Positions 10,808 through 63,683 of a DNA stretch of 64,000 nucleotides are shown here, piece after piece. Source of the DNA: Marsupella aquatica (Eukaryota > Plantae > Marchantiophyta); NCBI GenBank assembly GCA_973895155.1, contig OZ316896.1, positions 4,241,595 to 4,305,594 of the forward strand. Direction: 5' to 3'. How positions within the stretch are numbered: the first letter of the stretch is position 1; the number at the start of each line of letters is the position of its first letter. The position numbers and the translations under genes are program-made. Under the pieces are notes generated by a model. It was not told the origin of the DNA and did not search any database. It saw only the letters and a list, made by a program, of their open reading frames with translations.

Positions 10808-10841
10808 ATCCCCATCTTTCTTGCGCAAGAAAGATGGGGAT
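10808..10841. repeat. perfect 34-bp palindrome
   Basis: ATCCCCATCTTTCTTGC|GCAAGAAAGATGGGGAT, with no spacer. Confidence 0.95.
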
Positions 10842-14107: not shown

Positions 14108-14378
14108 CTAAGATTTATCCCGCCTAATACACATAAATCCATCCTGCAAATATGCCAATGCTTTCTGTCGAGTCTTGAAACTCTTGAACTTGCATCCACT
14201 GAAGCTATGGACCTGGTGTTGGCACGCCTCCCATGTGTCAAAGATGCCTGTGTGTACCCACACACAACTGCATAGTATTGCCGCTTCTGTCCAGGATGCC
14301 GAGCCTGAATCTGTTCATTTGGCAGCTGCCTTGACTGTGCGCCCGTAATCTCAATCACAAATTCCTGAGTTGCAGTAT
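14108..14378 (-). pseudogene. 3' part of a decayed gene with a C-terminal RNase H1 N-terminal (hybrid-binding)/Cauli_VI domain
   Basis: Minus strand reads YYAVVCGYT[1-nt frameshift]GIFDTWEACQHQVHSFSGCKFKSFKTRQKALAYL (14277-14147), matching the family pattern YYAVxxGxxPGIYxxWxxCxxQVxGFxGxxFKxFxTxxEAxxYL. Confidence 0.8.
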
Positions 14379-14722
14379 TGTTACATATTGCTCTAGTCTT
14401 GTGACTCATGAGCTAACTACAGTTAGGCTAACTCAGGTTAGGACTTAGCTAATGTTAGCGGTAGTGCTGTTGTGCATATAGCCAGGGCTGATGCCAGACC
14501 CGGGTGAAACTTAGGCTCATTGTTACGGAGCTAGTTGAGAGATAGGGAGAGCTTGTGCTGTGGATGCTTGGTATGGCCGGTCGGGCTAGAGTGCAGTAAA
14601 GCTCTTGTGTGTTCCCGTGGACGTAGCCTCATGTGGAGGTGAACCACGTATCTCTTTGTTTCAACTCTTGTGCGTTGGATGGTTCATGGGCTTGCCGTTA
14701 CAAATGTCGTCTATGCTCAACA
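14379..14722 (+). repeat. 5' LTR
   Basis: TGTTAC..TCAACA; about 15 substitutions versus the 3' LTR by hand count. Confidence 0.97.
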
Positions 14723-14724
14723 CG

Positions 14725-14736
14725 TGATATCAGAGC
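14725..14736 (+). promoter_or_regulatory. primer binding site (tRNA-iMet type)
   Basis: TGATATCAGAGC, one mismatch from TGGTATCAGAGC, 2 nt after the LTR. Confidence 0.85.
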
Positions 14737-16407
14737 ATGCCTGGGAGGTGACGAGGTTTTTTCGTAATGGGTTTTTTCCAACGTTCGTTGTCGATGGTAC
14801 ATTTGGAGTTTTGTCACATGAAACTCGAATGTGTGTGGCTGTGCGGATAGGTTAGTGAGAGGGCTTTCTAACGGTGGTTAGAACTCGCTGATCGGTATCC
14901 GTGGTGCAGAGGAATTGAAGTTTGTGTCGTTCAGGGTTTATTCATGTTCGACGGTATTTCGGGGGAGAGACCAGAGTTTACGTTTTTCAACGGTGTGCGC
15001 TGTGCGGTGCGGGAGGGATTGCACATTATTGCTTAAGTTGATGGTTGAAGCGAGCTGGTCGTTTCGGTAGGTGAGTTGCTGCCGAGTTGTTACCGAGTAC
15101 GACGTGACGAGTGAAGGAGGCGTTCAGGTTTTTTTCACAAGCTAGGGAGCTTGTTCCCATCTGAACCGGGTTTCTCTTCGTGACGTCCAACTCGGTGAAA
15201 GAAATGCAAAGTGCTACGGCTCAACGGTTTGATCACAGCGAGGCGGTCGTTTTGAGCCCGGGATTGGCACTTGACGCGGCGGAAATTTTGTACTGAGTTG
15301 GGGCTGCAGACTGTGCCGGTACAATTTGGCAACCTTTTTCCGTCGGCCGCGCTCACTTTCTTCGTTTCAATCAGCGGCTATTGAAGTGAGTTTTTTCCTT
15401 GTTACTTTGGGGGGAGTTTTTTGAATTTTAAAGGGGTTTGTAACCCCTTGTGTGTGTACAAACACACGACCCCCGGCCCTGTGTACTAGTATACCCCCCC
15501 TGCCCGCGTCCTGATTTTTTAATTACCGTAGCGCCAGCGAGCTGCGCAGCGCCGGCCGGCGCGTTTGCACCCGCAACTGGCCGTGTTTACCCCCTGGCCC
15601 TTCGCGAGCCCATGAACAGGGGCTCGCTGCCCCATCCTGCACCCCCGTCGTCCCTTCGCCAGGCCCTATCTTTGCCCTGCCCCTACGCGAACCCCGTGGC
15701 TCGCCCTCGCTCCGGTTGCTTGCCTAGCGAGTCAGGGCTGTGCCTTGACTTCCACCCCCGGCCTGGTTTTTTGGTTATACGCGGCTGCGTACACAACCGC
15801 TCCTATCCCCTGTGCATATTCCTGCCTGGCCCGCCTCGCGTCGCCTATACGACGTGGATGCGCCTTTTATTATACTTGTATTTTTGCTAAGGAGCACTAA
15901 CCACCCCTTTAAGGCCCTTTTTTATGCCGGTTTTTCCTCCCCTTTGTTCTCCTTGTGCAGGGACCTGCCGCCCTCCATTTTAACCGCTTTGACAGGGGAA
16001 CGGCCCCCTGTGAGCCCTATCATACTGTGCGGGAATATTCCTGAAAAACAGAGAGCTATTTTTTGGCCATCCGACAAAGATTCCATCTGCCGAATGGTAA
16101 CGTTTTTGGATCTTTTTTGGTGAGGACGTTGCCACTGGAGTTAGCAACGCGGCGCATTGATCACATCGCAATTTCGACGACGGGTTGTACTGGGTATTTT
16201 GGTTATTCTCCAAGGTGGTCAAAATGGGGGAGTTTCCCAAGGTGGTCAAAACGGGGGAGTTTCCCAAGATGGTCAGACGGTGAGTCTGAGGAGGAGCTGC
16301 TGCCGTTTGAGGAGGAACTAGTGACACCGGTACGATCACCGGTGCGGTGTGCAGTGGAGGAAGCTGTACTACTATCAGAGCTGTCGATAGTTGGGAAGAA
16401 GAGGGAG

Positions 16408-19400
16408 ATGGCTAGATTTGGAGGAGTGAAGTTTGAGGTGGAGAAGTATGATGGTCGTACTGATTACTTGCTCTAGGAGAAGCAAGTGAAGGGTGTCCTT
16501 CGGGCCATGGCCTTAGCTCATCTGCTTTCTTCGTGAAAGCAGTATGATGGAGATGAGGAGATTTCTATGAAGCAGTGGAGACAGAAGCAGGTGATTGCTG
16601 TCAATGCAATGATGCTATATCTCAAGCCGCACATCATTAAGCAGCTGGATGATTATGCGGATTGCGCGTCACTGTTCAAGGCTCTAAGAGAGAAGTACTA
16701 TCGGGAAGATGCGTCACACCGGTTGTACAAGAAGTCTCTCTTGATGAGCCTTAGGCTCAAGGAAGGGAGCAAGTTGCAGGATCACTTGGATGAGTTTGAC
16801 AGTCTAGCGGTGGATTTGTCAAACCTGGATAAAGGAGTTGAAGATGAGGATAAGGCCTTGCTTCTGCTAAGCTCCTTACCGCCGTCATATCAGGGCTTGA
16901 AACAAGTGCTCTTGTATAGAGATTTGAAGTCCATTTCGTATAATGAGGTGGTGAGCTCTTTACTGTCTGATGATGCTCAGAAGAAGCTGGGTCAATCACA
17001 AACAGCATCTTCTTCTAGCACTGCGCTCTATGCGAATAGGGGAAGAGCAGCGCAACGCACGAATGGGCAGAACAGGTTTAGATCTACATCACAGGGGAGA
17101 TCTAAATCCAGAGGGAAATCGCAAGAGAGGAAGCCTCTTGCATGTTGGAATTGTGGCAAGCCTGGCCACATGAAAAGGGATTGTCGAGTAAAGATCCCTA
17201 CTGCCTCTGCTAACGTGGCATCGAGCCCGCATGAGGTAGATTTACTCGATGATGATGACATATTGTGATGTCAAGGTTATGCTCTCAACGTAGTGTCAAA
17301 TCTAGGTAGTGATGACTGGATTCTAGATAGTACATGTACTTTTCACATTTGCTCTAGGAGAGATTTTTTCAGTTCTTACACGATTTCCAACGGGTCAATG
17401 TTGATGGGAAATGGAATCCCATGTCAAGTTGTTGGACTTGGATCTGTTAGATTTCAGATGTTTGATGGTGCTGTGAGAACGTTGAAAAATGTGAGACATT
17501 CCCAGCATGATGAAAAATCTCATTTCACTTGGAGTTTTAGAAGCAAATGGTCATCAGTGGAGTTCTGCTAATGGTGTTCTTCAGGTTTCAATTGGTACTA
17601 AAGTTGTATTGAAGGGAAAAAGACATAGCAATCTATACATTTTGGAGGGCAGTGTAGTTTGTGATGAAGCCAATGTAACCTTATCTCATGAGGAGACGAC
17701 CCGGCTGTGGCACTTCCGTTTGGGTCACATGAGTGAAAAAGGTTTGGCTATTCTTCAGAAAAATAGGATTACTTTCTAATTTGCAATCTTTAAGTTGGAA
17801 TTTTGTAAGCACTGTGTGCTTGGGAAGCAGCACAGGAAACCCTTCGGAGTTGGAACTCACACTAGCAAGGAGGTACTTGAGTATGTACACAATGATGTGT
17901 GGGGTCCAGCCCCTACTCCCTCACATTCTGGACGGTTATACTATGTCACTTTCATAGACGATTACTCAAGGTATGTGTGGATATACTTTCTACATAGTAA
18001 GTCTGATGTTTTTGCCACTTTTAAGGAGTGGAAAGCCCAAGTTGAGAATTAGACTGGTAATAAGGTGAGATATCTTTGATCGGATAACGGCAGTGAATAC
18101 AGTTCCGGGGAATTTGGAACGTATCGTAAGGAGCAGGGAATTAACCGTCATCTCACAACAAGTTATACTCCTCAGCAGAATGGTGTTTCTGAGAGACTCA
18201 ACCGAACACTATTGGACCGCTTGAGGAGTATGTTGAGTCAATCATGCTTACCACATGAGTTTTGGGCTGAAGCTGTCAACACTGCAACTTATTTGGTAAA
18301 TTTTTCTCCATCCAGTTCTATTGGATTCAAGACGCCATATGAAATGAGGTACGGACGTCCAGCAGATTACTCACATCTCAGGATTTTTGGATGTGATGCT
18401 TATGTGCTTACACCTTCCCAGCTTCGATCCAAGCTGGAGTCCAAGTCGAAGAAGTGCATTTTCCTTGGTTATCAGAAGGGTGTAAAGGGTATAGGTTATG
18501 GGATCCAGTAACCTGTAAACTAATTGTCAGTAGAGGTTTGTACTTTAATGAATCCAGATCATCAAAGGAGGAGGAGAGTTCTCAAGACTCCCATACTGAC
18601 AAGGGAAAATCTCTCATCCCGGACCGGGTTGAGGGGGAGTTTAGTCATGATGCTGTTCATGACAAGGAAGATGGAGAAGCTCCGGGCTTGGAGCTGGTTC
18701 CTGTGATGGAACAAGAGGAGCAGATTGTTGTTGGGGTATTTCAAATTCAGTCAGCAGCAGCAGCAGATCAGCCTGAGTCATCTACTAGAAGAACTTCTAG
18801 CCGTTCTACTAGAGTTCCTACCAGGTATGGTCAATGGGCAGACTCATCTAAGCTAGATGATATTGATATTGCACCGATGATGATGATATGGCTTTGATCT
18901 TGGAAGAAGAAGAGTCTTCTTCGTACAATAAGGCTTGTGCTTTAAAGCAGAAGCATAAGTGGAATGCAGCAATGCAGAGGGAGCTGCAATCTTTGAGTGA
19001 CAACAAGACGTGGGAGCTGGTGGAGCTTCCAAGAGGTTAGCAAGTGGTGGACAGCAAGTGGATTTACAAGTTGAAGGACAGTCCTTCAGAGGGTGGAGAC
19101 AAGATCTACAAGGCAAGGCTTGTTGCCAAGGGATTCACTCACGAGAAAAGAGTGGATTATAATGAGGTCTTTTCACCGGTGGCTAAGTATTCCACAATTT
19201 GGATCTTGTGTCAGCTTGTTGTGTTTTTTGGTCTGGTGATGGATCAGATGAATGTTGTTACTACTTTTCTCTATGGCAACTTGGAAGAGTTGATCTTCAT
19301 GAGACAGCCACTAGGCTTTATGAAGAAGGGCCAAAAGAACTTAGTTTGCAGATTGCTCAAGTCCTTGTATGGATTGAAGCAGTCTCCCAGACAGTGGAAC

Positions 19401-20480
19401 AAGCGTTTTGATGATTTCATGTTTGCTCCCGGTTTTACAAGGATGGTGTATGATCCTTGTGTGTATATAAAATCAGTCAAGAATGATGTATTTGGTTTCA
19501 TCATTCTGGTTATCTATGTGGATGACATGCTGATTGTGGCTAAAGATCAATCTGAAGTTGACAGTCTCAAGGCAAAATTGAGTGTTGAATTCAAGATGAA
19601 GGATCTTGGTAAGGCCAAGAGGATCTTAGGGATGGAGATTTTTAGGAACTCTGAGACTGGATAGTTGTGCTTGAGTCAAGGCCAGTATGCGAGAAAAGTA
19701 CTTGCACGATTCAACATGGAGAACTGTAAGTCAGTGAGTATTCCTTTAGCTTCATATTTCAAGTTATCATCGGCTTTCTCTCATACGGATGCTGTGGAGA
19801 AAGGTCTGATGGCTAAGATTCCTTATGAGAAGGCAGTAGGTAGTCTGATGTATTTGATGACTTGTACTAGGCCTGACTTGGCCCTAGCGATGGGCAAGGT
19901 TAGCAGATTCATGTCAAATCGAGGGAAGGTACATTGGGAAGCTGTGAAGTGGATTCTCAGGTATCTGAAGGGAACACAAGACTATGGATTACTAGTTGAT
20001 GCCAGATCAGATAGAACGTTAGTTGGCTATGTAGATTCTGACTATGGAGATTTGGATACAAGGAGGTCTACAACTGGGTTTGTTTTTACTCTTGGAGGAG
20101 GATGTATCAGTTGGAAATCTACCTTGCAAAAGTGTATATCTCAGTCTACTACAGAAGCAGAGTATGTTACAACAACAGAAGCAGCAAAGGAAGCAATTTG
20201 GTTGGACAAGTTGATCGCGGAGATGGGTTTAGAGCATGGCAAAATGACTCTAAACTATGATAGTCAGAGTGTTCTTCACTTGGCTGCTAACCAGGTGATG
20301 GATAGCAGGTTGAAGCACATTGATATCAGGTACCATTTTATCAGGCAAGCAGTGTCTGATAAAACTTTTGAGCTAGTCAAGATTGATGGAAAGCTCAATC
20401 CCGCTGATGCCTTTACCAAAGTGATTCCTTTGGAAAGTTTCTCAAGACACCGTGCTACTTTGCAGGTTTTGCAGTTGTAG
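16408..20480 (+). pseudogene. copia gag-pol polyprotein disrupted by stops and frameshifts
   Basis: KFEVEKYDG gag start, CWNCGKPGHMKRDC knuckle, WILDST protease, LWHFRLGHMS and YVTFIDDYSR integrase, YKARLVAKG and YVDDML RT, YVDSD and KHIDIRYHF RNase H. Confidence 0.95.
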
Positions 20481-20669
20481 TGCAAGTAGAGTTATTTAGC
20501 AATGTGTGACTATTTGTATATGGATTACTCATTCCTGTTTGGCTACGGCTTAGTTCTAGTTAACCCTTAGTTAACCCTTGTGGTTTTTAGGGGGAGACCT
20601 GGTTTGGTGATTGTCTAGAACTTCCCGCTGAGGATTCCATATGGTAGCATTTAGTCTAGTCCCCAAGAC

Positions 20670-20685
20670 AAGAGTCAAGGGGGAG
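20670..20685 (+). promoter_or_regulatory. polypurine tract
   Basis: AAGAGTCAAGGGGGAG immediately 5' of the 3' LTR. Confidence 0.85.
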
Positions 20686-20687
20686 TT

Positions 20688-21031
20688 TGTTAGATATTGC
20701 TCTAGTCTTGTGACTCATGAGCTAACTATAGTTAGGCTAACTCGGGTTAGGACTTAGCTAATGTTAGCAGTAGGGCTGTTGTGCATATAGCCAGGGATGA
20801 TGCCAGACCCTGGTGGAACTTAGGCTCATTGTTACGGAGCTAGTTGAGAGATAGGGAGAGCTTGTGCTGTGGATGCTTGGTATGGCCGGTCGGGCTAGAG
20901 TGCAGTAAAGCTCTTGTGTGTTCTCGTGGACATAGCCTCATGTGGAGGTGAACCACGTATCTCTCTGTGTCAACTCTTGTGTGTTGGATGGTTCATGGGC
21001 TTGCCGTTACGAATGTTGTCTATGCTCAACA
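20688..21031 (+). repeat. 3' LTR
   Basis: TGTTAG..TCAACA followed by the AGTAT TSD. Confidence 0.97.
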
Positions 21032-21036
21032 AGTAT

Positions 21037-40930: not shown

Positions 40931-41778
40931 TTTATAAGGTCCAATATGGCAAATCTCCAATTTTGCAAATCTCATTTTGTGTGAAGGAGAAGATGCCATA
41001 AATATTCCCTATCTGATTTTACTGCATTTTTTTGAACCTTCACATCTCCTCAGATTTAAGGACGAGTCTTTAGATTCTTGCTAATGGGGCCTATTGCCAG
41101 GTGGAAAACTGGCTATTGGAGGAAAGAAAACCTAAAAAGCTTCACTAAAAGTGATGAAAACATTTAGCAGAGGTGGGATCTAGCAAATTTCCACCACTCA
41201 AAAATGCTGCCCTACTCACCAGTAAACTGCAAAGGCTCCTAAAGCTCAGGAGTGAATTACATAGGAGAGTCAAGAAGACAAATTTGTTTAGAAGCACTTT
41301 AAAACCAACAGCCTCGCCCCAGAGAATAGTGGATGTATGAGCCGTTTGTAGTGCAAGACACATCAGTTATCTAAAGAAGATACCTGACACAGAAGTTGGG
41401 AGATAAGGCCCTTGCCCTTCCCCTCTTCCTTTTGGAATTTGTTTGATTGTGTAGACGAGCATTTCTGATCAATCAGATGTATTATACTTAGTGATCCAAG
41501 TATACATTTATGGCTAACTTTATAGAGTGAAGTCATAGGCCTATACTTTTACCAACATTTTTCTGGGAAGTAAAATCCAAGTTGAAAAGTGCAATGTACT
41601 TAGGAAAGGTTGTAGTCAGAATAGGTTGCCTTCAAGATTGATAAAACTTGACTGACAATTAATTGAGACGAGTCCACTACAATTGATTCACAATTGATAA
41701 GAGCCGAGAAGACAACAAGGTACCAACAAGAAAAGAGAAAAAATGTTGTAGACGGGAACTGCAGTGAGTAAGGTGTAG

Positions 41779-41877
41779 GGTAACCCATCCCCAAGAGGGG
41801 GTAATGGGCTGTAATCCCCGAGGGCATTGAGCCCGAGGGGGTTACAGCCAATTACCCCCAAGTGGGGATGAGTTACC
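41779..41877 (+). repeat. 99-bp imperfect inverted repeat (hairpin)
   Basis: 47-nt arms with 39/47 Watson-Crick complementarity and a 5-nt loop ATTGA (41826-41830). Confidence 0.92.
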
Positions 41878-42039
41878 GAGCGTAAGCCCCAGAGTGAAAT
41901 TTTGAAAAATATTCTCACGTTTATCTTGGGCGCCAGAATGGGAAACGTCACGTGGGGATAGTATTTGACACACTTCCATTGTTCACACCGGACAGTTTTG
42001 TCATTATTTTGTTTAGATTTGCTTAGATTTGCGTACGCC

Positions 42040-43742
42040 ATGGAAATCTCGATGTCAGCAAAGAGGAGTCGTAGCTCAATAGATCAAAAAGCTGTGTCAC
42101 GATTTGCAGCAATTGATCCTGTGGAGGTACATAATGTGAGTATCGGAGGCCATCAAAAGAGTGCTAAGTCAGAGGCCTGGGCGGAGAAGTCGTTCAATGA
42201 CTGGAGGGTGCATAGGGGATTCAGCATCGATACTAGCCTTGCAGACCTTTCCGAATGTGAGCCGAAGTTGTTGGTCGACTTGCTCACAGAATTCATTTTA
42301 CAGGTGAGGAGACAAGATGGTAAGTTGTATCCAGCAACTACCATTCAGAATATGCTTCGAGCAATTAATCGTGTAATTAGAGGTCGTCAAGAGATGCGGG
42401 CAGTGGAGAGTGGCGAAGCATTTATTCCAATAGACATTTTCAAGGCCCCTATGTACATGAAGGTGAAGCTTGCTGGAGATGAAGCTGCTACACGAGCAAT
42501 ATTGGCAGGGATTGGAAAGGAAATCAAGAAGAGTGACATCCTTAGTCCTGCGGAGGAAGCCAAAATGCTGCGTCTCCCACAGAATCAAGCTACATCTCCG
42601 ATGGGGACCAACTTGAGATTTGCATGGTACTGTGTGAACCGGTTTCTTATTAGAGGCTCTGGTGAGCTAAGATTGGTGGCGCAAGGCGATTTAATACTCT
42701 CCAAGACGGCAGCAGGCGAGTATGTCAGATTCTCTCAAAGTCTCTCCAAGAACTGGAAAGCAAGTGTGCAGAGATGCTCAGCGGAGCACTTGAGGCCACC
42801 CGTAGATGTTTACATGAAAGATGTTATAGTCACGTACAAGGTTATGATGTCTAAATGGCCAACCTGGCTGCCCGACGAATTGAACGAGCCCCATCCATTG
42901 TTCTTGCAGCCTAAACGAACTTGGCGTTTTCAGGATCCTGTGTGGTACACCAATGAGCCCATGGGAAAGAATACTTTAGAGAAGGCAGCACAGATGATGA
43001 CAAAGGAAATGCCAGAACTGGAGGGCAAAAGTATTACCAATAAGTCAGGTCGAACCACTGCCATCACTCGACTTCTGGACGCAGGCACCCCAGCAGAGTT
43101 TGGCATTGAAATATCGGGGCATCATGATGTGAAATCTTTTAAAAAGTACGTATCTAGTTGTGTAGAGTACGCATTGTGCAATATTTGATAGAAGACTAAG
43201 AGTTGTTCCCGTTCTGGTCATTTATGCCTCGACTGTGTCCCTTTGATGTGCTTTCATTGTGCATTCTTTCATGTTTACAATCTGAGACTTCTTGTAGGTA
43301 CAATCGAGGTGACAAGGAGGTGAGAGAGAGAGAGCAATGCAGAGAATCGTTGGTGCAGAGATAGTTGGAGGAAAGCTCATGAAGTGGAGTGAGGCCCTGG
43401 ATCTAGAGATTAAACATCTTGAAGAGATTCAGATGCAAGAAGTATCAGCAATGGAGACGTCGCTAGCAATGTCGAATGGAAAGGAAACAATGCAAATTAT
43501 TTCCAAAAGAAGACGAGGACGATGCTAAGTTCTGGGGCTCTGATGAAGTTTAGACTCTCTTAGAGCATACTGAGATGAAAACAAAGAAAGTGGTTGTTGC
43601 TACTGCTTCGAGCTCTGAAGGCCACACTTTTCGGGATCTAACTAATTGTCCAATTACTATTATCAACATCACTGACCCCAACGCAGCCCTCAAATGCATA
43701 GGGAGTTTGAATTTCCATCTGAAGGAGAACGCTGCAGCCTGA
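42040..43742 (+). CDS. DUF3504/Crypton-type tyrosine recombinase; exon 1 42040-43145 intact, intron 43146-43297, exon 2 frameshifted
   Basis: Motifs YPATTIQNML, FLIRGSGELR, SKNW, LFLQP..WYTNEPMGKNTL, TNKSGRTTAITRL and SGHHDVKSFKK/Y. Intron is AA|GTACGT..TTGTAG|G. The tail motif is FRDLTNCPITIINI. Confidence 0.85.
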
Positions 43743-43940
43743 CCAGGATTTGATTGTTTGTTTATTTGATTCAAATTAGACGTAAGAGACGTAGATCCAA
43801 TTCGATTGACCAGGATTTGATTGTTTGTTTATTTGATTCAAATTAGATGTAAGAGACGTAGATACAATTCGACTGACCAGGATTTGATTGATTCTTTATT
43901 TGATTTAAATTAGACGTAAGAGACGTAGATCCAATTTGAC
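43740..43940. repeat. 67-bp tandem repeat, 3 copies
   Basis: TGACCAGGATTTGATTG.. starts at 43740, 43807 and 43874. Confidence 0.95.
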
Positions 43941-44394
43941 GTATAAAATAGATAGATAGCTTGATCTGATCAATCCAATTTAGATACAAGAGATGTGGAT
44001 TTGGACATGCGACAGAAATATAGCTTCATTTGATTTGATTAGAAGTAGATTGCATTGTTGTACGTACAGATTAATTGACATGATATTGAAACGGTTTATT
44101 TCATTGATCATTGTCAGGCTGCAAGTCCATGGATTGACTGTTTATCCTCATGTTTCATTCAATTTTGCATGGTCTCTCTCTTCTGGTGTTTGATTCAATT
44201 TAGACGTAGACTGCATTACTGTACAGAAATTGAATATTGTTTCGCTCCATGTTGAACATTACCTTAGTTTGTTCTCAGTTAGTTCTCAAAGCTCCAGGGT
44301 CGATGGTCTCTCTGTCCTCATCGACTTAATTCAGATATTGAACAAGTTTGAGTTACACTGCAACATGTGTGCGTAGCTTTTGTCAGTGTTTGCC

Positions 44395-44557
44395 ACTTGT
44401 GGTTGGCAGCCTCCGCTGCCAGGGTCCGTAGCTTACTATGTAAAAAAGTTACAATGTACTTTCAAAATTACTTGTGGTTGGCAGCGTCCGTTGCCATGGC
44501 GCGCTGCCAGGGTCCGTGGCTTACAATGTAAAAAAGTGAAAATGTACTTTCAAAATA
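44395..44557. repeat. two-copy subterminal direct repeat (~75-88 bp)
   Basis: ACTTGTGGTTGGCAGC..CGCTGCCAGGGTCCGT.GCTTAC.ATGTAAAAAAGT..AATGTACTTTCAAAAT at 44395 and 44470. Confidence 0.9.
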
Positions 44558-44698
44558 GGGAATCCCCAGGCCAGGCTAGCTCAGGGGTTCTGTGGCCCCA
44601 CCCGCGGGGTAATGCCTCATAACCCCTTGTAAAAACACAAAGACAAAAATTCAGGAGGGGTTAACGAAATCAGTTTCTCTGTTTTCATTCAGGTTACC

Positions 44699-44789
44699 TG
44701 TTGTGGACAATCTCTTATCAAAATATGGTCTCTTGATTCAGAATGGTTCATTCAAATGGTCATCTTTTGATAATAGATTGTCCACAACA
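44699..44789 (+). repeat. 91-nt fold-back (miRNA-precursor-like or miniature inverted-repeat element)
   Basis: Outer 25-nt arms are 24/25 complementary, and the stem extends inward with G-U pairs on the + strand. Confidence 0.8.
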
Positions 44790-46539: not shown

Positions 46540-47777
46540 AACTAACCAAACAGGGACACAATAACTAAAAGGTCAGGGACCCAACAAAGGGGGAAAAACA
46601 AGGAAAAAAATCCCAGGAAGACAAACGAGCCAAAAAGCCCAAGAAGTTACACAAAACTGCAAAGGAACTATTTTTGTGTGTGGGTTGGCTTAACCAGACT
46701 AACCTGTGAATATACACAAACGTTTTACAGAAAAGGGCCAAACAGAGTACAAAAGAATAACCAAAAGAGGTCCCAAGTGGGCAAAACCAAACGCAAAAGA
46801 AGTGAGTGAAAGGAAACCTCTAAGAACCAAGAAAGGGGAACTAAAACAACTGCAAATGGACCGAGGTCCTTATCATTCCTAGCTAGTGTGGCTAATAGCT
46901 AAAGGTCCACATCAAGTGTCAAAACTAAATCGGCAAGTGGGAATGAAATGTCCTCTAGGGGGGCTAGCCGCTGTGGAGGCACACTAGCACCCACTGTCAG
47001 AGATCAACGATGGATGGGCCGAGCTTGAGCACGCTATAAGGTGACTGAAATGCATTGGCAAAATTGCGTGGTCAAAACGTATAGCGGGGGTCTGGTGGGA
47101 CCCATCCGGCCATGAACATCCCGAGCAGCTTGTTGAAGAAGCCCGTCAAATTGTTGATGGAGATGCCCAAATATCTCAAGAGCAAGGGGGAGAAAGCTAT
47201 TAGATGAAGCTCGGGCAGCATATCTGGCCTCCTTTGTTGTTGCCGCTCGTGATGCCGCTGCCCCTGCCATTGTTGCCACTGACCCAATGATGTCTTGGCG
47301 CAATGGGTTTGCCACTACTACATCTGCCAAAGTACGTTGACCCTCATGGACCATGGTAAGATCCACCCGTAACCGCTGTGATGGAGGACCAGGTAACTCG
47401 AGCACCACCTCCCGCCGCATGCTAACCAAAGAGCCAGAGAGAACCTGAGCAGTCTCATCTCTCACAACATCGTGAACAAAAATGGTTTCGCCGCCCAAAC
47501 AGCACCAAAGAAGATGGACACCTGCATCACAAGGCTTCCCACAAGTGCAAGAGGGAGGTAAACCAGCAAGAAGTGGGTGGGGCAACCCCATACGAAGACG
47601 CATGGCTGTCAAGAACTCCGCTGAAGACATCCGCAAATGAGGAATGACTGGATTGGCCTGAAGCCAACCCCCCGCGCCCTTCCCTCCGGACGAAAGAAGT
47701 GGTTTGGGGACACATAGAGGCTCATAATTTGTCCAAGCCAGCACCCCGCAAAATTTGGGGAAAATGAGCAGGACCAA
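46540..47777 (-). mobile_element. 5'-truncated non-LTR retrotransposon with restriction-like endonuclease (CRE-like)
   Basis: ORF 47034-47777 has RLRMGLPHP, CTC..HLLWC zinc motif, HDVVRD, RVD, TLADV, KEARY and FLPLALEIFG, which are the CCHC plus PD-(D/E)xK RLE signatures. A T-rich 3'UTR follows on the minus strand. Confidence 0.8.
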
Positions 47778-50040
47778 AATGTGATAGTTTTTGTTTGTAG
47801 ACTATAGCCAGCACCCATGTTCTTGTGCTGGCTATAACTGGCATATAGATAGCATATTCTCCTCAACCAAGGTGACATTTGCCACCCTCATTCTCCTCCC
47901 AATCTCCATTTTACACCCACATCCCCAACTTTAGTTATACCCCAAGTCACTATCTAGAGACTTTACTCTAGACCATAGCCCTGAAGAGTATTTTTCTATC
48001 CTGATTATATACTTAGATAGCATTACTACACAAGTAATGTCATTTTAAAGTTTTTTTCAGTCTATGAATATAGTGCAGGGACATTGAATGTCCTCAACTC
48101 TCACATTAATTTTATCTTCCTAAAAGCACACTCAGGATATTAAAGAAAGTCACTGATACATCGACAGTCCAGATGTATATAGTTATGACTTGTTTAGAGG
48201 GCATTGTGGGATATAATGCCCCCAAAACCAGAGCTTATTCTCTAGTTTTGACAATGCTTGGGAAACAGGGCCTTATTACACTTAAAAGTCCTGAAAGATT
48301 TATCTTTTTACTAATTTAGTAAAGGTATGGGAGATTCTTCCTAAAGACATGATTCAAATCTTGACCGGGGCATTCTTGTTCAAGAATGCACTGAAAATAC
48401 AAATGTTAAAAATCTCCAAGGACATTAGGGATTGAGAAGCTTTTACAAAACATGATTGACAGTAATCACCATTGTTTTTGTTGCAAAAATAGCCAAATTG
48501 CACCTGAACAGTGGTGGTCAATTTTGGCCAAAATTAGTCAGGCTTTTTGTCTTAGATTAGCCAGTTTTTCACTTAGCCGCAGTCCCCATTAGCCAAATGG
48601 TTATCCTTATATCTAGGGAGATCTAAAGATCAGACATCAATCTAGTGAAATCAGGTGTGGAATATTCTTAGGATCTTCTGCTGGGCCACAACCGTGTGCC
48701 AAGGAGAAAAATGTGACTAAAAACTTAAAACCCCAGTGAAACAGAAAAGAAACCTTAAAAGTTACCCTGACATAATGCCATCTGCTCGGATTACTCTCAC
48801 CGCAGCAAGGAGTGTGCTTTTCATCGACAACCCAAATTGTATGTTTGTCTGCCAAGATAAGTGGTGGAAAGTTCTCAAAATTGTCACATGCGGGATCATA
48901 TGAACGCCTTAGTAAGAACCTGTGTTCTCACTGGATACTGAAGTCTGTCATGGTTTAAAAGGGAGAGAAGACAAAGGGTGAGGGCAACCTGTTCTTGCGG
49001 TCATGCTCCAAACACATGGCATAGTCTAAACAAAGCCTGAGAAGTAGTCAAGGTTTTCTTCGGCAACTCATTCTGTGACACCAAACATGGCATGCAAATT
49101 TTTTCAATCTAATCCTTATCAGGCTGTGGCCAGGCCTTATAGTGTTACGAGATAATAACTGAGAGAATATACTAGGTGGACTTCAATAGACTCACTAGAA
49201 AAATGGCTTAACACCATGAACTAAGCAAAGCAAGAGACTTTTTTTTATAGCAAAGCAAGAATTTTGTGGGGGTTCCCGACAGAATTGCCTATCATATTGA
49301 ACAGAGCATCAATCCATCAGAATTGAATATCATACCAAACAGAGTATAGATCCATTGCTGCAAATCTTGTAGGCATTCCCTGATTTTCTGGCATAGGCAT
49401 CCCTCCCTTCACTTCCAATGAACATGCCAGGTGCAGGTTCCAATACAACATCTACCTTAATGTCTATTGTAGTTGGTAATTCAGGTTTTCAGCTGTCCTC
49501 CCACTTACGAATGATTTCTTCTATCGCCCCTTTCTTTGGCCTCTCCTTAATAAGTATTAAGGGGTTCAAATTTCCCTACATTGTGAGAAAGGGTATGAAT
49601 ATTTGGGGGAGGCAATAATTGTGGTCAGAAATCTAACAGGCAGCCTTCTAGTACTGAGACAGCTATGAAGTCATAGACTCATATCACAGCTATTCGTCAA
49701 GGCCAAGGAGGAAAGGGATGCCTAGATTGAGGTTTCCTTGTCACTCCAAATGGATGCTAATAAATCCCATTCCAAACAAACACCTAAAACTGTCAACCCA
49801 CAAGTGAACCATCTGTGCGTGGACCAGCAAAGAGGTCTTCAAATTGAGTTTAAGCAAACTAAAGGCAAAAGTATATAAAAAAGAAGAAGGAAAAAGTAGA
49901 GAGAGAAAACGTTTTGGCTGGAAAAAGTTTAAATGACCAGCAAAATCTGGCCACTACGTACGGTAGCTCTGTATGCATGCTTGAGAATTTACACTTGTGA
50001 GAATGTACTCTTAATCACATTTTTTTTAGTGGGAAAATCT

Positions 50041-55300: not shown

Positions 55301-56539
55301 CACTCACTCCAAATTGCCCGACAGGCAGTCCCGATTCATTTCACAGTCTCCCTTCACCAACCCGACAGGCCTTGGATCCGTCTACGAGCTGCCTGGTCTC
55401 CAATAGTCAAATCCCTAAAACAATCCTCCTCTCTCGATCACCATTCCTATTGGCCTCCACCTAAAATCCTAAAACCCTCGCCAAAGAGAAGGCATACATG
55501 CGCAAATGATCGTGCCCTCATCCCTAACGATGAACTAGCAAAGCAGATGCAACCTAGAATTGTGACGTGTCATTGCATCATGTTTAGAGTGAATACATTG
55601 ACCATGTTGTATTCTTCCGATTGTTCTAGATTGTGGCTATTGTAGTTTTGAATACAATAGTCATATTGTATTCACAAAAACTAGGAAGCCATGGTGCTAC
55701 GACGCTCAATTTGCGGCCAGGGCTACGATGCTTGTGGACTGCAACGTTATTGATGGCCTACTACACATGACCAACCACGGTGTCCACATGGTACGTAGTG
55801 GACCTGAACTGTGTGGTAAGGTGTTTCAGAAGAACATGCTTGTACGGAGTGGGCCTAGAAGTCCATTGGGAGAGAATCTAAACGTTGAGGTCCACTGGGA
55901 AGGCGTGTGCAACTTTTGGTCCATTAAGAGAAAAAGTTGCATTTGGAGGTCCACTAAGTATATATTTCAGCTTTGATGTGCAATTCCTAAATAAGTTCTC
56001 GGGAAATTTATGTATACAATGAGCCTTCATGCACAGTGAGCAATGGGCGGCCAGGACATCTCTCACTGGAAGGGGAGCTTTTTTGCCTATGGTAGAGTCG
56101 ATGGTGATACCTCATATCACACAGAAGCTCCTTAATGTAATATGCTCTCAGCCAAAAGTATATCCTAAGGAGCCCTCATAAACCCAACCTGAATTTTTGT
56201 GAATCAACAGCTATCACGGTAGTTTTCACCATTTCCCATTTCTGGGAGTATCTTACTACAAATTTATGAGTTTCACTTTCTACATTTACATATAACTCTA
56301 AAGGACCCATCCGTGAAGATCATCAAGTTTTGAGTGCATCTTTACAGAATGAAACAATTAACCATGAAAAGTTTAGAGAATATTCGTCCATCTAAAAAGA
56401 TACTTCAAATATTGAAACTTTGAGTCTGATACTATATTTTTTTCTCATAGGAGGAAAAAACACATATTATCCAGCAGTTGGCAAGCAAAATTTAGTCCCT
56501 TGTTAGCCAAGACTTGTTTTCAGATTTGGATTTGTTATC

Positions 56540-61305: not shown

Positions 61306-63683
61306 TGTCACTTGCCTATCCAATGATTAATACGTGCACACCGTACTTTTCTTTGCTTAAACCGTTGGTATCATATTACGGGGTCGTGGAGGGACGCTAT
61401 TTGGAGGATTTCCACACCTAAGGATGAGTATGTTTGATTCCGCTCCTGGAAGTGTACTTTTTGATCAAGTCTACCGACTGGTCTCTCCATTTTTGATCAA
61501 GTCCAAGGGACTGGCCCTACCATCTACAACTCATGCCCCCCCGGGTGAGTGCTCTCACCACCCCCCCTCTCATTGGGCAAGCACACAAACGTTTACAATA
61601 AGATTTGAACACTAGTGACACGGGCAAATGTTTCCACAATGAAACCGACCACATGCACTAGGGGAGGAAAACAAACAACACAAGTAACAACAAGTGACAC
61701 ACAAAATATTGGAACCTCAAGCCAAATCCATATCTCTTGGTGTTTCCCGTAACACATGCAAGGAAACCCCGGCCTCCTATCGTCTACCCAACTCCTGCCT
61801 CCCGGGGACAAGTGCTATGTTCTCCACCTCACTACTCTGGCTTGAACTTCTCCTAATCGATGCGCTACTCACAAAAGCTACTCAAAATCATCAGGGCACT
61901 ATGTTGAGTTCCCCCCTCACTACTCCGGGGCTCTTCCCCCTAAATACTGGAAACCAACACACCAAAGCACCCCTCACGGGGTCACAAAGATGGCGGCTAC
62001 CCTAGTGGCGCCGCTAAAACCATTCACGAGAAATCCCTAACCTAAAACATGCGGCACACACATGATCCTAAAGCCCTAATCTAACTATGGGACCGACGAT
62101 GCCTTCGACAACGACACAATCTCGCTCCGTGAACCGCAAAAATGCAAGGGACCCCATAATTGCCGAAACTAGGTGACACTTTGAGTGCACCTCTGAGCTC
62201 ACCCCTGGGTAGCCCTGCTCCTCCTGATCATGAATCACCAAACCGCTCCCGAAATGGATGTCACCTATGAATCACCAAACCACTCCACTAAACAAGGACT
62301 CACTTGAGTCCACCACCTCCTATCCTATCTATCTACCCTGCCTATCAGTCTCAATCCTCCTGATCGCCACCACCGGTCCGTTGTAAAAGGAGGGGGCCCC
62401 TATAATTGTTGAAACTAAAATTTTCTCAGAATTCACTTCTGAAAACATATTTGAGGAGCTCTCCTCTTCCTGATCACGTCTCTATAAACGGTGCACAAAA
62501 CGGAGGCCAAACGACCAAGATATGATCGTTTAACTTTTCATGGGGCATCGTCTCCCTCCGTTTCGTCCGTACAACACCAGGGGGCCCCGGCTTTGCAAAA
62601 CACGGATCACGAGTTCTCCCTATGTGGTGCTACCTCCTCCTTCCCTTGCAAAGCCGGGACCTCCTGCCGTATGGATGTCCATACGGCCTCAAAACCCTGG
62701 TATTCTCAAAAAATGCGATTTGTTGTATCTTCCCCGTCTTAGCTCCGTTTTGGCCGTGTGACACATCGTTGGATTTAGCTCGAGCTCTTTCCAACAAGCC
62801 TGTAGACTCCTGATTTGAGATGGTCGAAAATCTGATGTTCGTACAACCAAGGTCCGTACACACGTTGAAAGCAAGCACAAGAGGGAAAGGGTTTAGGGTT
62901 TAGGGTTTAGGTATGGGTGGAAACCCCACAAGTGAGAATAGAGAAAAAGGGAAGGAAGAAAGTGTGAGGGCCCCTTCTACCGATGTAATCTTCTATGAAG
63001 TGCCCCTTCTACGGTGTGGTTCTTGTATGGAGTGCCCCTCTACGGAGTGGGGAAGGGAAAGAGAGCAAAAACCATGTGAGGACCACACAAAGAGTGAAGG
63101 GGAACACAAGTGTGGGAACCCCTTCCTTCTAAGGGCCCTCCAAGATCACTACTCCAAGATCACTACTCCAAGATTGTCTAGTTTGTTATTTTACGGGCGT
63201 TAAGGTCCCTCAAGATGTCACTGTTTGATATAGACCTAGAATCAACTAGAGAACCTCAGTTTCGCATGGGGCTCATTGAGGGCTTGAAAATGAATCCAAA
63301 CATGACTATGTTTGGAATAGTACTAGCGCAGCAACATCTATTTTAAGTTTTAACATTTTCTATATTTTGGTTATTCTTCCCGTTTTGCGCCTTACGTGGA
63401 GCCTCCGATCAGCCCCCACCCCTCCAAGATGCCCACACCTTGGCTCCAAGTCCTTGGGCTGCCTTGTGGCCTCCTTGTACCCCCTCAATGGTTCCCTTGT
63501 CATCCATCACCGCCCGGCACTGCTCTCAACTCCGGCCTCCGGTTGTCGCATCCATTTATTAGAACTAACAAAAATAAAAAATTTGAAAATCCAAACACTT
63601 TTACTACATCTACTTGTCTTTCTACTTATATACGCAATTATAAGTCATCACTAAGTTACTACCGGGTTTGGGGCCCTGTCACA
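61306..63683 (-). mobile_element. 2378-bp solo LTR, probably Ty3/gypsy
   Basis: TGTCAC..GTCACA ends, perfect TTAAC TSD (61301-61305 and 63684-63688), no coding domains. Orientation is inferred. Confidence 0.85.
62888..62911 (+). repeat. interstitial plant telomere-type repeat (TTTAGGG ~3x) within the LTR
   Basis: AGGGTTTAGGGTTTAGGGTTTAGG. Confidence 0.9.

Follow-up and report, generated by a model that had tools for sequence, protein, structure and literature searches.

A subterminal hairpin built from core-type sites in a probable CryptonA-like transposon of Marsupella aquatica: a candidate folded single-strand substrate for a tyrosine recombinase

Marsupella aquatica (Marchantiophyta) carries, on contig OZ316896.1 of assembly GCA_973895155.1, a gene for a DUF3504-like tyrosine recombinase that is preceded by a 99-nt imperfect hairpin. 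The whole stretch analysed, called the window here, comprises 64,000 nucleotides (positions 4,241,595 to 4,305,594 of the forward strand), and all coordinates below are counted from its first letter. Each arm of the hairpin (41779..41877, plus strand) contains a site of the pattern GGGGTWA-N7-TWACCCC, a third copy of which lies near the right end of a putative element of about 2.9 kb (41774..44670, plus strand), and the mismatches within the hairpin are biased towards purine-purine oppositions on the plus strand. We consider it an even chance that the hairpin is the left-end recombination module of this element, selected to fold on the plus strand and recognised by the recombinase in the form of a folded single strand.

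The hairpin is GC-rich and is the longest among the short-range inverted repeats of the window, with two 47-nt arms (41779-41825 and 41831-41877) around a 5-nt loop. A position-by-position comparison of the arms gives 39 Watson-Crick pairs and eight non-pairing positions, and no pairing was seen outside 41779/41877. The predicted DNA fold has an energy of -40.1 kcal/mol on the plus strand and -39.1 kcal/mol on the minus strand, values matched by none of 200 dinucleotide shuffles on either strand (z about -10). The non-pairing positions consist of a C.A opposition (41785/41871), a 3x3 purine loop (41794-96/41860-62), a single G.A (41806/41850), a T.G (41815/41841) and a tandem GA/GA (41820-21/41835-36); all eight are symmetric, and the main stem of this copy has no extrahelical bases. 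An earlier note on this DNA had described 47-nt arms with 39 pairs, which these figures bear out, and had listed the tandem GA/GA, the 3x3 loop and the T.G (six of the eight positions) but omitted the C.A and the single G.A. Its description of the mismatches as clustered holds weakly, the clustering being just above chance (p = 0.08).

With at most one mismatch, the pattern GGGGTWA-N7-TWACCCC occurs three times in the window, always on the plus strand: at 41798..41818 in the left arm (site 1, one mismatch), at 41838..41858 in the right arm (site 2, no mismatch, inverted relative to site 1) and at 44606..44626 near the right end (site 3, no mismatch). Shuffled windows (n = 100) contain a mean of 0.05 such sites and a maximum of one, a figure that overstates the significance because the pattern was derived from the sites themselves. 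Judged from the sequence, three near-exact 14-base matches restricted to the two ends of one element are not chance. The recurrence of the arm motifs at 44606-44626, already seen in the earlier note, is thereby confirmed, and the recurring letters make up a complete site. The layout resembles that of tyrosine recombinase sites, in which a spacer of 6-8 bp separates two inverted repeats (PMC3212892; statements about published work refer throughout to the accessible parts of each source). The 7-nt spacers of sites 1 and 2 differ by one base, which is the G.A mismatch at 41806/41850. A degenerate site with three mismatches lies across the hairpin base (41869..41889, plus strand), a level of matching that equals the background (eight in the window against 7.3 expected); its mirror image is an outward-facing half-site at 41781-41787, and a second single outward-facing half-site is found at 44657-44663, at the putative right terminus. 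The inverted similarity between the left end and the right subterminal region has a score of 47, against 39 for the best tile elsewhere (905 tiles). The region around site 3 does not fold (z = -0.25).

The sharing of this motif between the two ends bears on two readings in which the hairpin is not a recombinase substrate. One is that the hairpin serves as a priming or origin structure for copying of the excised circle by the host. An active Crypton is known to gain copies (PMC9977147), and the hairpin is GC-rich and strand-biased; we nevertheless hold this to be quite unlikely, as the hairpin is built from the inverted-repeat-plus-spacer motif of the other end and no Rep or helicase gene is present. 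The other is that the structure acts in RNA, as a microRNA-like or other small-RNA precursor or as a 5' leader structure. Folded as RNA, the plus strand reaches -77.4 kcal/mol, and sheared GA pairs are found in RNA too. This reading is very unlikely in view of the site motif common to the right end and of the Rfam matches between 41500 and 45000 (six up to an E-value of 5), which all fall far below threshold, the best overlapping one, mir-247, reaching 21.6 of 70 bits. ACGT boxes, including CACGTG, are also present at 41915-41956, and we take them to be possibly a stress- or light-responsive promoter. Because they lie between the hairpin and the start codon, the element's own transcription would probably start downstream of the hairpin, which argues against an RNA role.

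On the plus strand, six of the eight hairpin mismatches are purine-purine, none is pyrimidine-pyrimidine and two are of the transition type. The null expectation was taken from a perfect repeat decaying under the substitution spectrum of X1, one of the four public runs described below, which would give about 68-70% transition-type, about 16% purine-purine and about 16% pyrimidine-pyrimidine mismatches; counted per position, the purine-purine excess has a p-value of 0.0006-0.0008. The loop purines lie outside the shared site motif, because at the right-end site, which does not fold but otherwise matches, the adjoining letters are GC and TTG instead of the GA and AAG of the hairpin loops. In DNA, tandem GA steps have unusual stability (PMC8163305), in agreement with what the earlier note had stated for tandem G-A mismatches in hairpins. 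The mismatch pattern thus suggests a strand bias of the kind expected for a fold selected on the plus strand.

The assignment of the hairpin to a recombinase element in the earlier note is supported. The ATG of the recombinase gene (42040) lies 162 bp downstream of the hairpin. Exon 1 (42040..43145, plus strand) encodes a Cre-fold, DUF3504-like tyrosine recombinase, as indicated by its open reading frame (ORF), profile matches and a structure model. It is followed by a predicted 152-nt GT-AG intron just before the Y370 codon (43146..43297) and a predicted exon 2 (43298..43528), both on the plus strand, the spliced frame stopping at 43364. This copy appears to be frameshifted after the catalytic tyrosine, because a homologue-like C-terminal tail, recognised by eye, sits in another frame (43313-43528) past a GA run (43320-43340); contigs from runs X1 and X3 are identical to the window across this region. 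The catalytic set comprises R205, K237, K335 (in place of His), R338, H361 and Y370, and R205, K237, R338, H361 and Y370 are conserved in 25, 28, 29, 25 and 25 of 30 aligned rows, respectively. The first His of the HxxR motif is Lys (residue 335, 43042-43044) here and in 15 of the 30 rows, including most of the land-plant clade. The protein matches PF12012 (DUF3504) with an E-value of 2.7e-06, at 28 bits against a cut-off of 29.7, and the Phage_integrase match is weak; 12 of 28 clade members match DUF3504 at an E-value of 0.01, and the nearest Atlas cluster is 83% DUF3504 (score 0.98). With a model built from a 28-row alignment (pLDDT 82), the fold search had Cre as its top match (E-value 9e-10), followed by the Tn1549 integrase, a QRICH1 complex, an integron integrase and Xer proteins.

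At an E-value of 0.001, 908 related proteins were found. Organism names were checked for 20 of the 150 protein matches listed, the best named ones being from Riccia and others from Diphasiastrum, Calypogeia, Adiantum, Marchantia, Ceratodon and Physcomitrium. A quick 30-row tree, with SH-aLRT support only and without Repbase CryptonA references, places the recombinase in a six-row clade with four Riccia proteins (support 99), nested in a 17-row clade (support 100) whose named members are all land plants. Taken by themselves, these affinities make a non-seed land plant, rather than an animal, the probable host. A word-based protein search led to the acceptance of none of 3649 candidates. Two relatives are annotated as host genes, one in Marchantia (P0018, 603 aa, with a DUF3504 name) and one in Physcomitrium (P0027, named as a coilin N-terminal domain protein), and these may be domesticated plant Crypton genes.

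The ends of the element were placed from the outward-facing half-sites at 41781-41787 and 44657-44663, with an uncertainty of about 10 bp. The putative right terminus (44644..44670, plus strand) comprises the second of these half-sites and a segment complementary to 41883-41906. The term subterminal, applied to the hairpin in the earlier note, is plausible for a terminus placed by site symmetry. No direct repeat of at least five bases is shared by the two end regions; they have four 4-mers in common, three of which overlap at the half-sites. Self-comparison of the window yielded neither end a second time, nor the gene, and a 13-bp stretch near 56185 (minus strand) that matches the right end was dismissed as chance because it scores like the background (34 against 33). 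No other ORF of 120 aa is present on the strand of the gene between 41.7 and 44.7 kb. The Pfam matches of the recombinase ORF are all related to tyrosine recombinases, with no reverse transcriptase, DDE transposase or extra C-terminal domain among them.

For assignment to the Cryptons, the absence of long terminal repeats and terminal inverted repeats was considered together with terminal direct repeats of 4-6 bp, which are absent in animal CryptonA. We take the element to be, most likely, a CryptonA transposon, which it resembles in its workings; its DUF3504 score lies just below the cut-off, its ends are putative and its place in the tree was judged without Repbase references. Like the CryptonA or DUF3504-encoding Cryptons (PMC3212892), including the Glomhoppers (PMC13465315), it has one tyrosine recombinase gene whose domain resembles DUF3504, its putative ends appear to lack both terminal inverted repeats and a target duplication, and apparent non-autonomous derivatives are abundant; the gene has a predicted intron, as do those of many Glomhoppers (PMC13465315). 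It differs from them in its land-plant host, in the Lys that replaces the first HxxR His, and in having core-type sites in several copies as well as a long hairpin near one end. Animal Cryptons are described as having no terminal repeats (Kojima and Jurka 2011, PMC3212892), and the ends of Glomhoppers could not be defined (PMC13465315). A curation guide lists a short direct repeat alone for Cryptons (PMC8969392), hairpins have been assigned to IS200/605 and direct repeats to Cryptons (PMC3627910), and a Repbase review, in its accessible part, gives no hairpin for the Crypton-derived Eulor repeats (PMC5753468). The terms 'hairpin' and 'palindrom' are absent from the accessible text of PMC13465315, and the hairpins near animal DUF3504 elements that the earlier note mentioned are found in the accessible text of neither PMC3212892 nor PMC13465315. 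We found no description of Crypton hairpins or of plant CryptonA elements in the literature, but one may exist in Repbase, in subscription journals or in supplements such as the element list that accompanies PMC3212892 and the repeat supplement to PMC13465315. Nor was a biochemical demonstration of Crypton movement found, and the ends of the DUF3504 group are undefined in print in the accessible sources.

The element is present in four public runs from two studies, the read contigs of which were placed at 80% likeness; one of the runs may be the source of the window. In the three fully read runs, the bin containing the hairpin is 37, 48 and 45 times as deep as the gene bins; for run X3, of which 57% was read and in which coverage of the gene is interrupted, the ratio (260) was set aside. 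Relative to single-copy depth, the gene reaches about 2.5-fold and the right-end bin 13-17-fold. These depth ratios are not copy numbers, because overlapping short contigs and the presence of two arms inflate them. A contig joint from 41818 to 44549, found in all four runs, indicates molecules that have both ends but no gene. Such gene-less joints and the high depth of the ends fit non-autonomous derivatives, and non-autonomous CryptonA elements outnumber autonomous ones in medaka (PMC3212892).

The depth figures could also be explained if the hairpin were an independent foldback element or miniature inverted-repeat transposable element (MITE) inserted upstream of the recombinase gene, as the hairpin bin is so much deeper than the gene and exceeds the right-end bin 7-10 times in depth. 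The excess over the right end may mean that the hairpin is partly independent of it; a separate element inserted upstream of the gene we regard as highly unlikely. The earlier note had named, as a finding that would tell against its view, a MITE with its own target site duplication, and no duplication or further pairing is present in the flanks (41755-41778 and 41878-41901). The two end regions have no word of at least five bases in common, the far end has the site motif and the inverted similarity to the left end described above (47 against at most 39 elsewhere), and the joint between 41818 and 44549 occurs in all four runs. The prevalence of non-autonomous over autonomous CryptonA elements (PMC3212892) also speaks against a separate MITE.

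Among the 40 substitutions listed out of 2077, none falls inside the hairpin, and the sole hairpin indel among the 12 listed out of 287 is a 1-nt deletion at 41850, the A of the single G.A mismatch, which accounts for 10-33% of the depth in all four runs. With this deletion the predicted fold is kept (-39.5 kcal/mol), and one base would bulge. Run X3 also has a joint from 41817 to 41788 at which 34 further letters, similar to a variant of an arm, are present, possibly reflecting a subfamily with a different hairpin.

A possible extension of the hairpin by end joining emerged from modelled junctions. When the right end near 44666 is joined to the left end near 41777, the segment 44644-44666 pairs with 41883-41906, a stretch 3' of the hairpin (plus strand) for which the predicted pairing with the right terminus is suggestive. 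The extension of the stem again has purine-only loops on the plus strand and a predicted energy of -50.4 kcal/mol, against -43.4 kcal/mol in the native context, and a junction modelled through the shared 4-bp words costs 6 kcal/mol relative to one that preserves the 7-nt spacing. In this model, stem extension by end joining is a suggestive lead rather than a result.

Several observations weigh against the folded-strand reading and its extension by end joining. In energy terms the right-terminus extension is not significant, its value being equalled at 161 of 63,681 positions (the top 0.25%) and reached by 54 of 637 tiles of 100 bp; three positions inside the element (44488, 43733 and 43541) score better than the right terminus, which is joint fourth among 40 half-site matches and shares first place when the 20 nt upstream are scored. 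The spacing of site 2 is not invariant, because the deletion at 41850 shortens its 7-nt spacer, and depth is 7-10 times as high at the left end as at the right. The element encodes no Rep, HUH or helicase protein that would generate a single strand, and the integron integrase structure 2a3v ranks just 38th in the fold search (TM 0.45). No relatives with flanking DNA were found in viral_contigs (searched with a DNA pattern and alignment A3), in metagenome_contigs (A3 and P0152) or in genome_contigs (the window protein). Counted per loop (three of five), the purine bias has a p-value of 0.06, and the nearest-neighbour energies of the two strands are 1 kcal/mol apart. The claim of the earlier note that the structure is selected as a plus-strand fold is partly supported, by the purine-purine bias but not by these nearly equal energies. 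Finally, the loop bases are the centres of short C-run/G-run palindromes that are directly repeated between the arms, and small inversions could be their source.

Some of these points favour an array of binding sites in double-stranded DNA, in which mirror-symmetric half-sites (core and accessory) would act as duplex during a standard Crypton excision to a circle, with folding as a by-product and the purine loops arising from small sub-palindromes. The site motif accounts for every arm segment, inversions of the palindrome centres could produce the loops, the strand energies are nearly equal, the nearest fold to that of the model is Cre, and the published Crypton model has a double-stranded circle (PMC3212892). 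However, the complementarity of the arms extends beyond the half-sites through the spacers and linkers (39 of 47 positions), the purine linkers are not kept at the unfolded right-end site, and there are no pyrimidine-pyrimidine mismatches on the plus strand. We consider such an array possible, if doubtful. A hairpin telomere (protelomerase site) was also considered and dropped, given the 5-nt loop, the internal mismatches and the lack of a protelomerase among the fold matches listed.

If the recombinase reads a folded strand, the half-sites would bind recombinase protomers and the 7-nt spacer would be a crossover-type region. A copy of the plus strand, present as a displaced strand or an extruded cruciform arm, would fold, site 1 would pair with site 2, and a duplex site would be rebuilt from one strand. 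With the ends joined as a circle, the right terminus would lengthen the stem by about 22 nt and build a junction site at its base. One strand would be exchanged with a double-stranded target and replication would resolve the junction, and the outcome would be insertion by copy-and-paste with no duplication of the target; derivatives that keep the ends but lack the gene would be mobilised in trans. We infer every step of this route past the sequence anatomy.

Parallels can be found in other systems. The CTX phage folds two inverted dif-like sites of its single strand into attP(+) (PMC4246890), and the element resembles this XerC/XerD substrate in having two inverted core-type sites that can be folded into one duplex site on a single strand; its sites are 19 bp apart, whereas those of CTX are 90 bp apart, it has its own recombinase, and its single-stranded stage is a proposal. 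The attC sites of integrons have purine-rich unpaired parts on the recombining strand and may be extruded as cruciforms (PMC5027507), and their recombination is resolved by replication (PMC4792948). The hairpin shares with attC/IntI an imperfect stem, purine-rich unpaired features on one strand and a tyrosine recombinase partner, but in this copy its main stem has no extrahelical bases and its loops are symmetric, there is no cassette array and IntI is not the nearest fold; the element is not an integron element. For the Vibrio SE elements, strand-biased circularizing integrative elements that also depend on a tyrosine recombinase, one strand has been proposed to be copied out as a circle (PMC9345347); these are bacterial, with four genes and no hairpin described in the accessible text. 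In Chlamydomonas, the active CryptonF-1_cRei also belongs to the tyrosine recombinase transposons and makes no target duplication; it both excises and increases in copy number (PMC9977147). Plain excision is inadequate for this active CryptonF because it gains copies; copy gain is a feature of cRei, which belongs to a different Crypton group and ends in a target-matching 5-bp motif, whereas no 5-bp repeat is shared by the two end regions here.

A broader proposal, to which we give a little less than an even chance, is that CryptonA-type transposons, including a little-described land-plant clade, move via a folded single DNA strand. A hairpin completed at its base by end joining would then be the eukaryotic counterpart of CTX attP(+) and integron attC, with the recombinase reading DNA structure in a copy-and-paste process.

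Other features are found within and around the element. Three tandem 67-bp repeats lie inside it (43740..43940, plus strand), and subterminal tandem repeats with a spacing of 75-88 bp are present at 44395..44556 (plus strand), the last unit of which joins in the degenerate inverted similarity to the left end. A second hairpin (44699-44789, with 38-nt arms that are 84% alike) starts about 30 bp past the putative right end. On the plus strand it has three pyrimidine-pyrimidine and three transition-type mismatches, the former being purine-purine on the minus strand. No duplication was seen at its flanks, and it may be the end of an oppositely oriented neighbouring element or a decayed MITE. A high-depth ORF of 255 aa without a Pfam match (47034-47801, minus strand) presumably resembles the C-terminal restriction-like endonuclease region of a CRE-type non-LTR retrotransposon. 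A degenerate long terminal repeat (LTR) retrotransposon occupies 14378-21034, with 348-bp direct repeats (14378-14725 and 20687-21034) that are 95% alike and broken gag-pol frames; we take it to be of the Copia type. The window also contains a perfect 34-bp palindrome without a loop (10808-10841) and, at an internal position (62889-62912), three tandem GGGTTTA units, which we assume to resemble the plant telomere repeat.

The element adds a well-preserved example to the land-plant Crypton clade and offers a compact candidate substrate, with three 21-bp sites, one 99-nt hairpin and a near-intact enzyme within 2.9 kb. The question of whether such a recombinase acts on a duplex circle or on a folded single strand can now be tested directly with oligonucleotides. 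If the folded strand is the substrate, single-strand recombination by tyrosine recombinases, so far a matter of bacteria and phages, would extend to plants and perhaps to animals, with implications for which DNA the domesticated DUF3504 proteins (ZMYM2-4, QRICH1) prefer.
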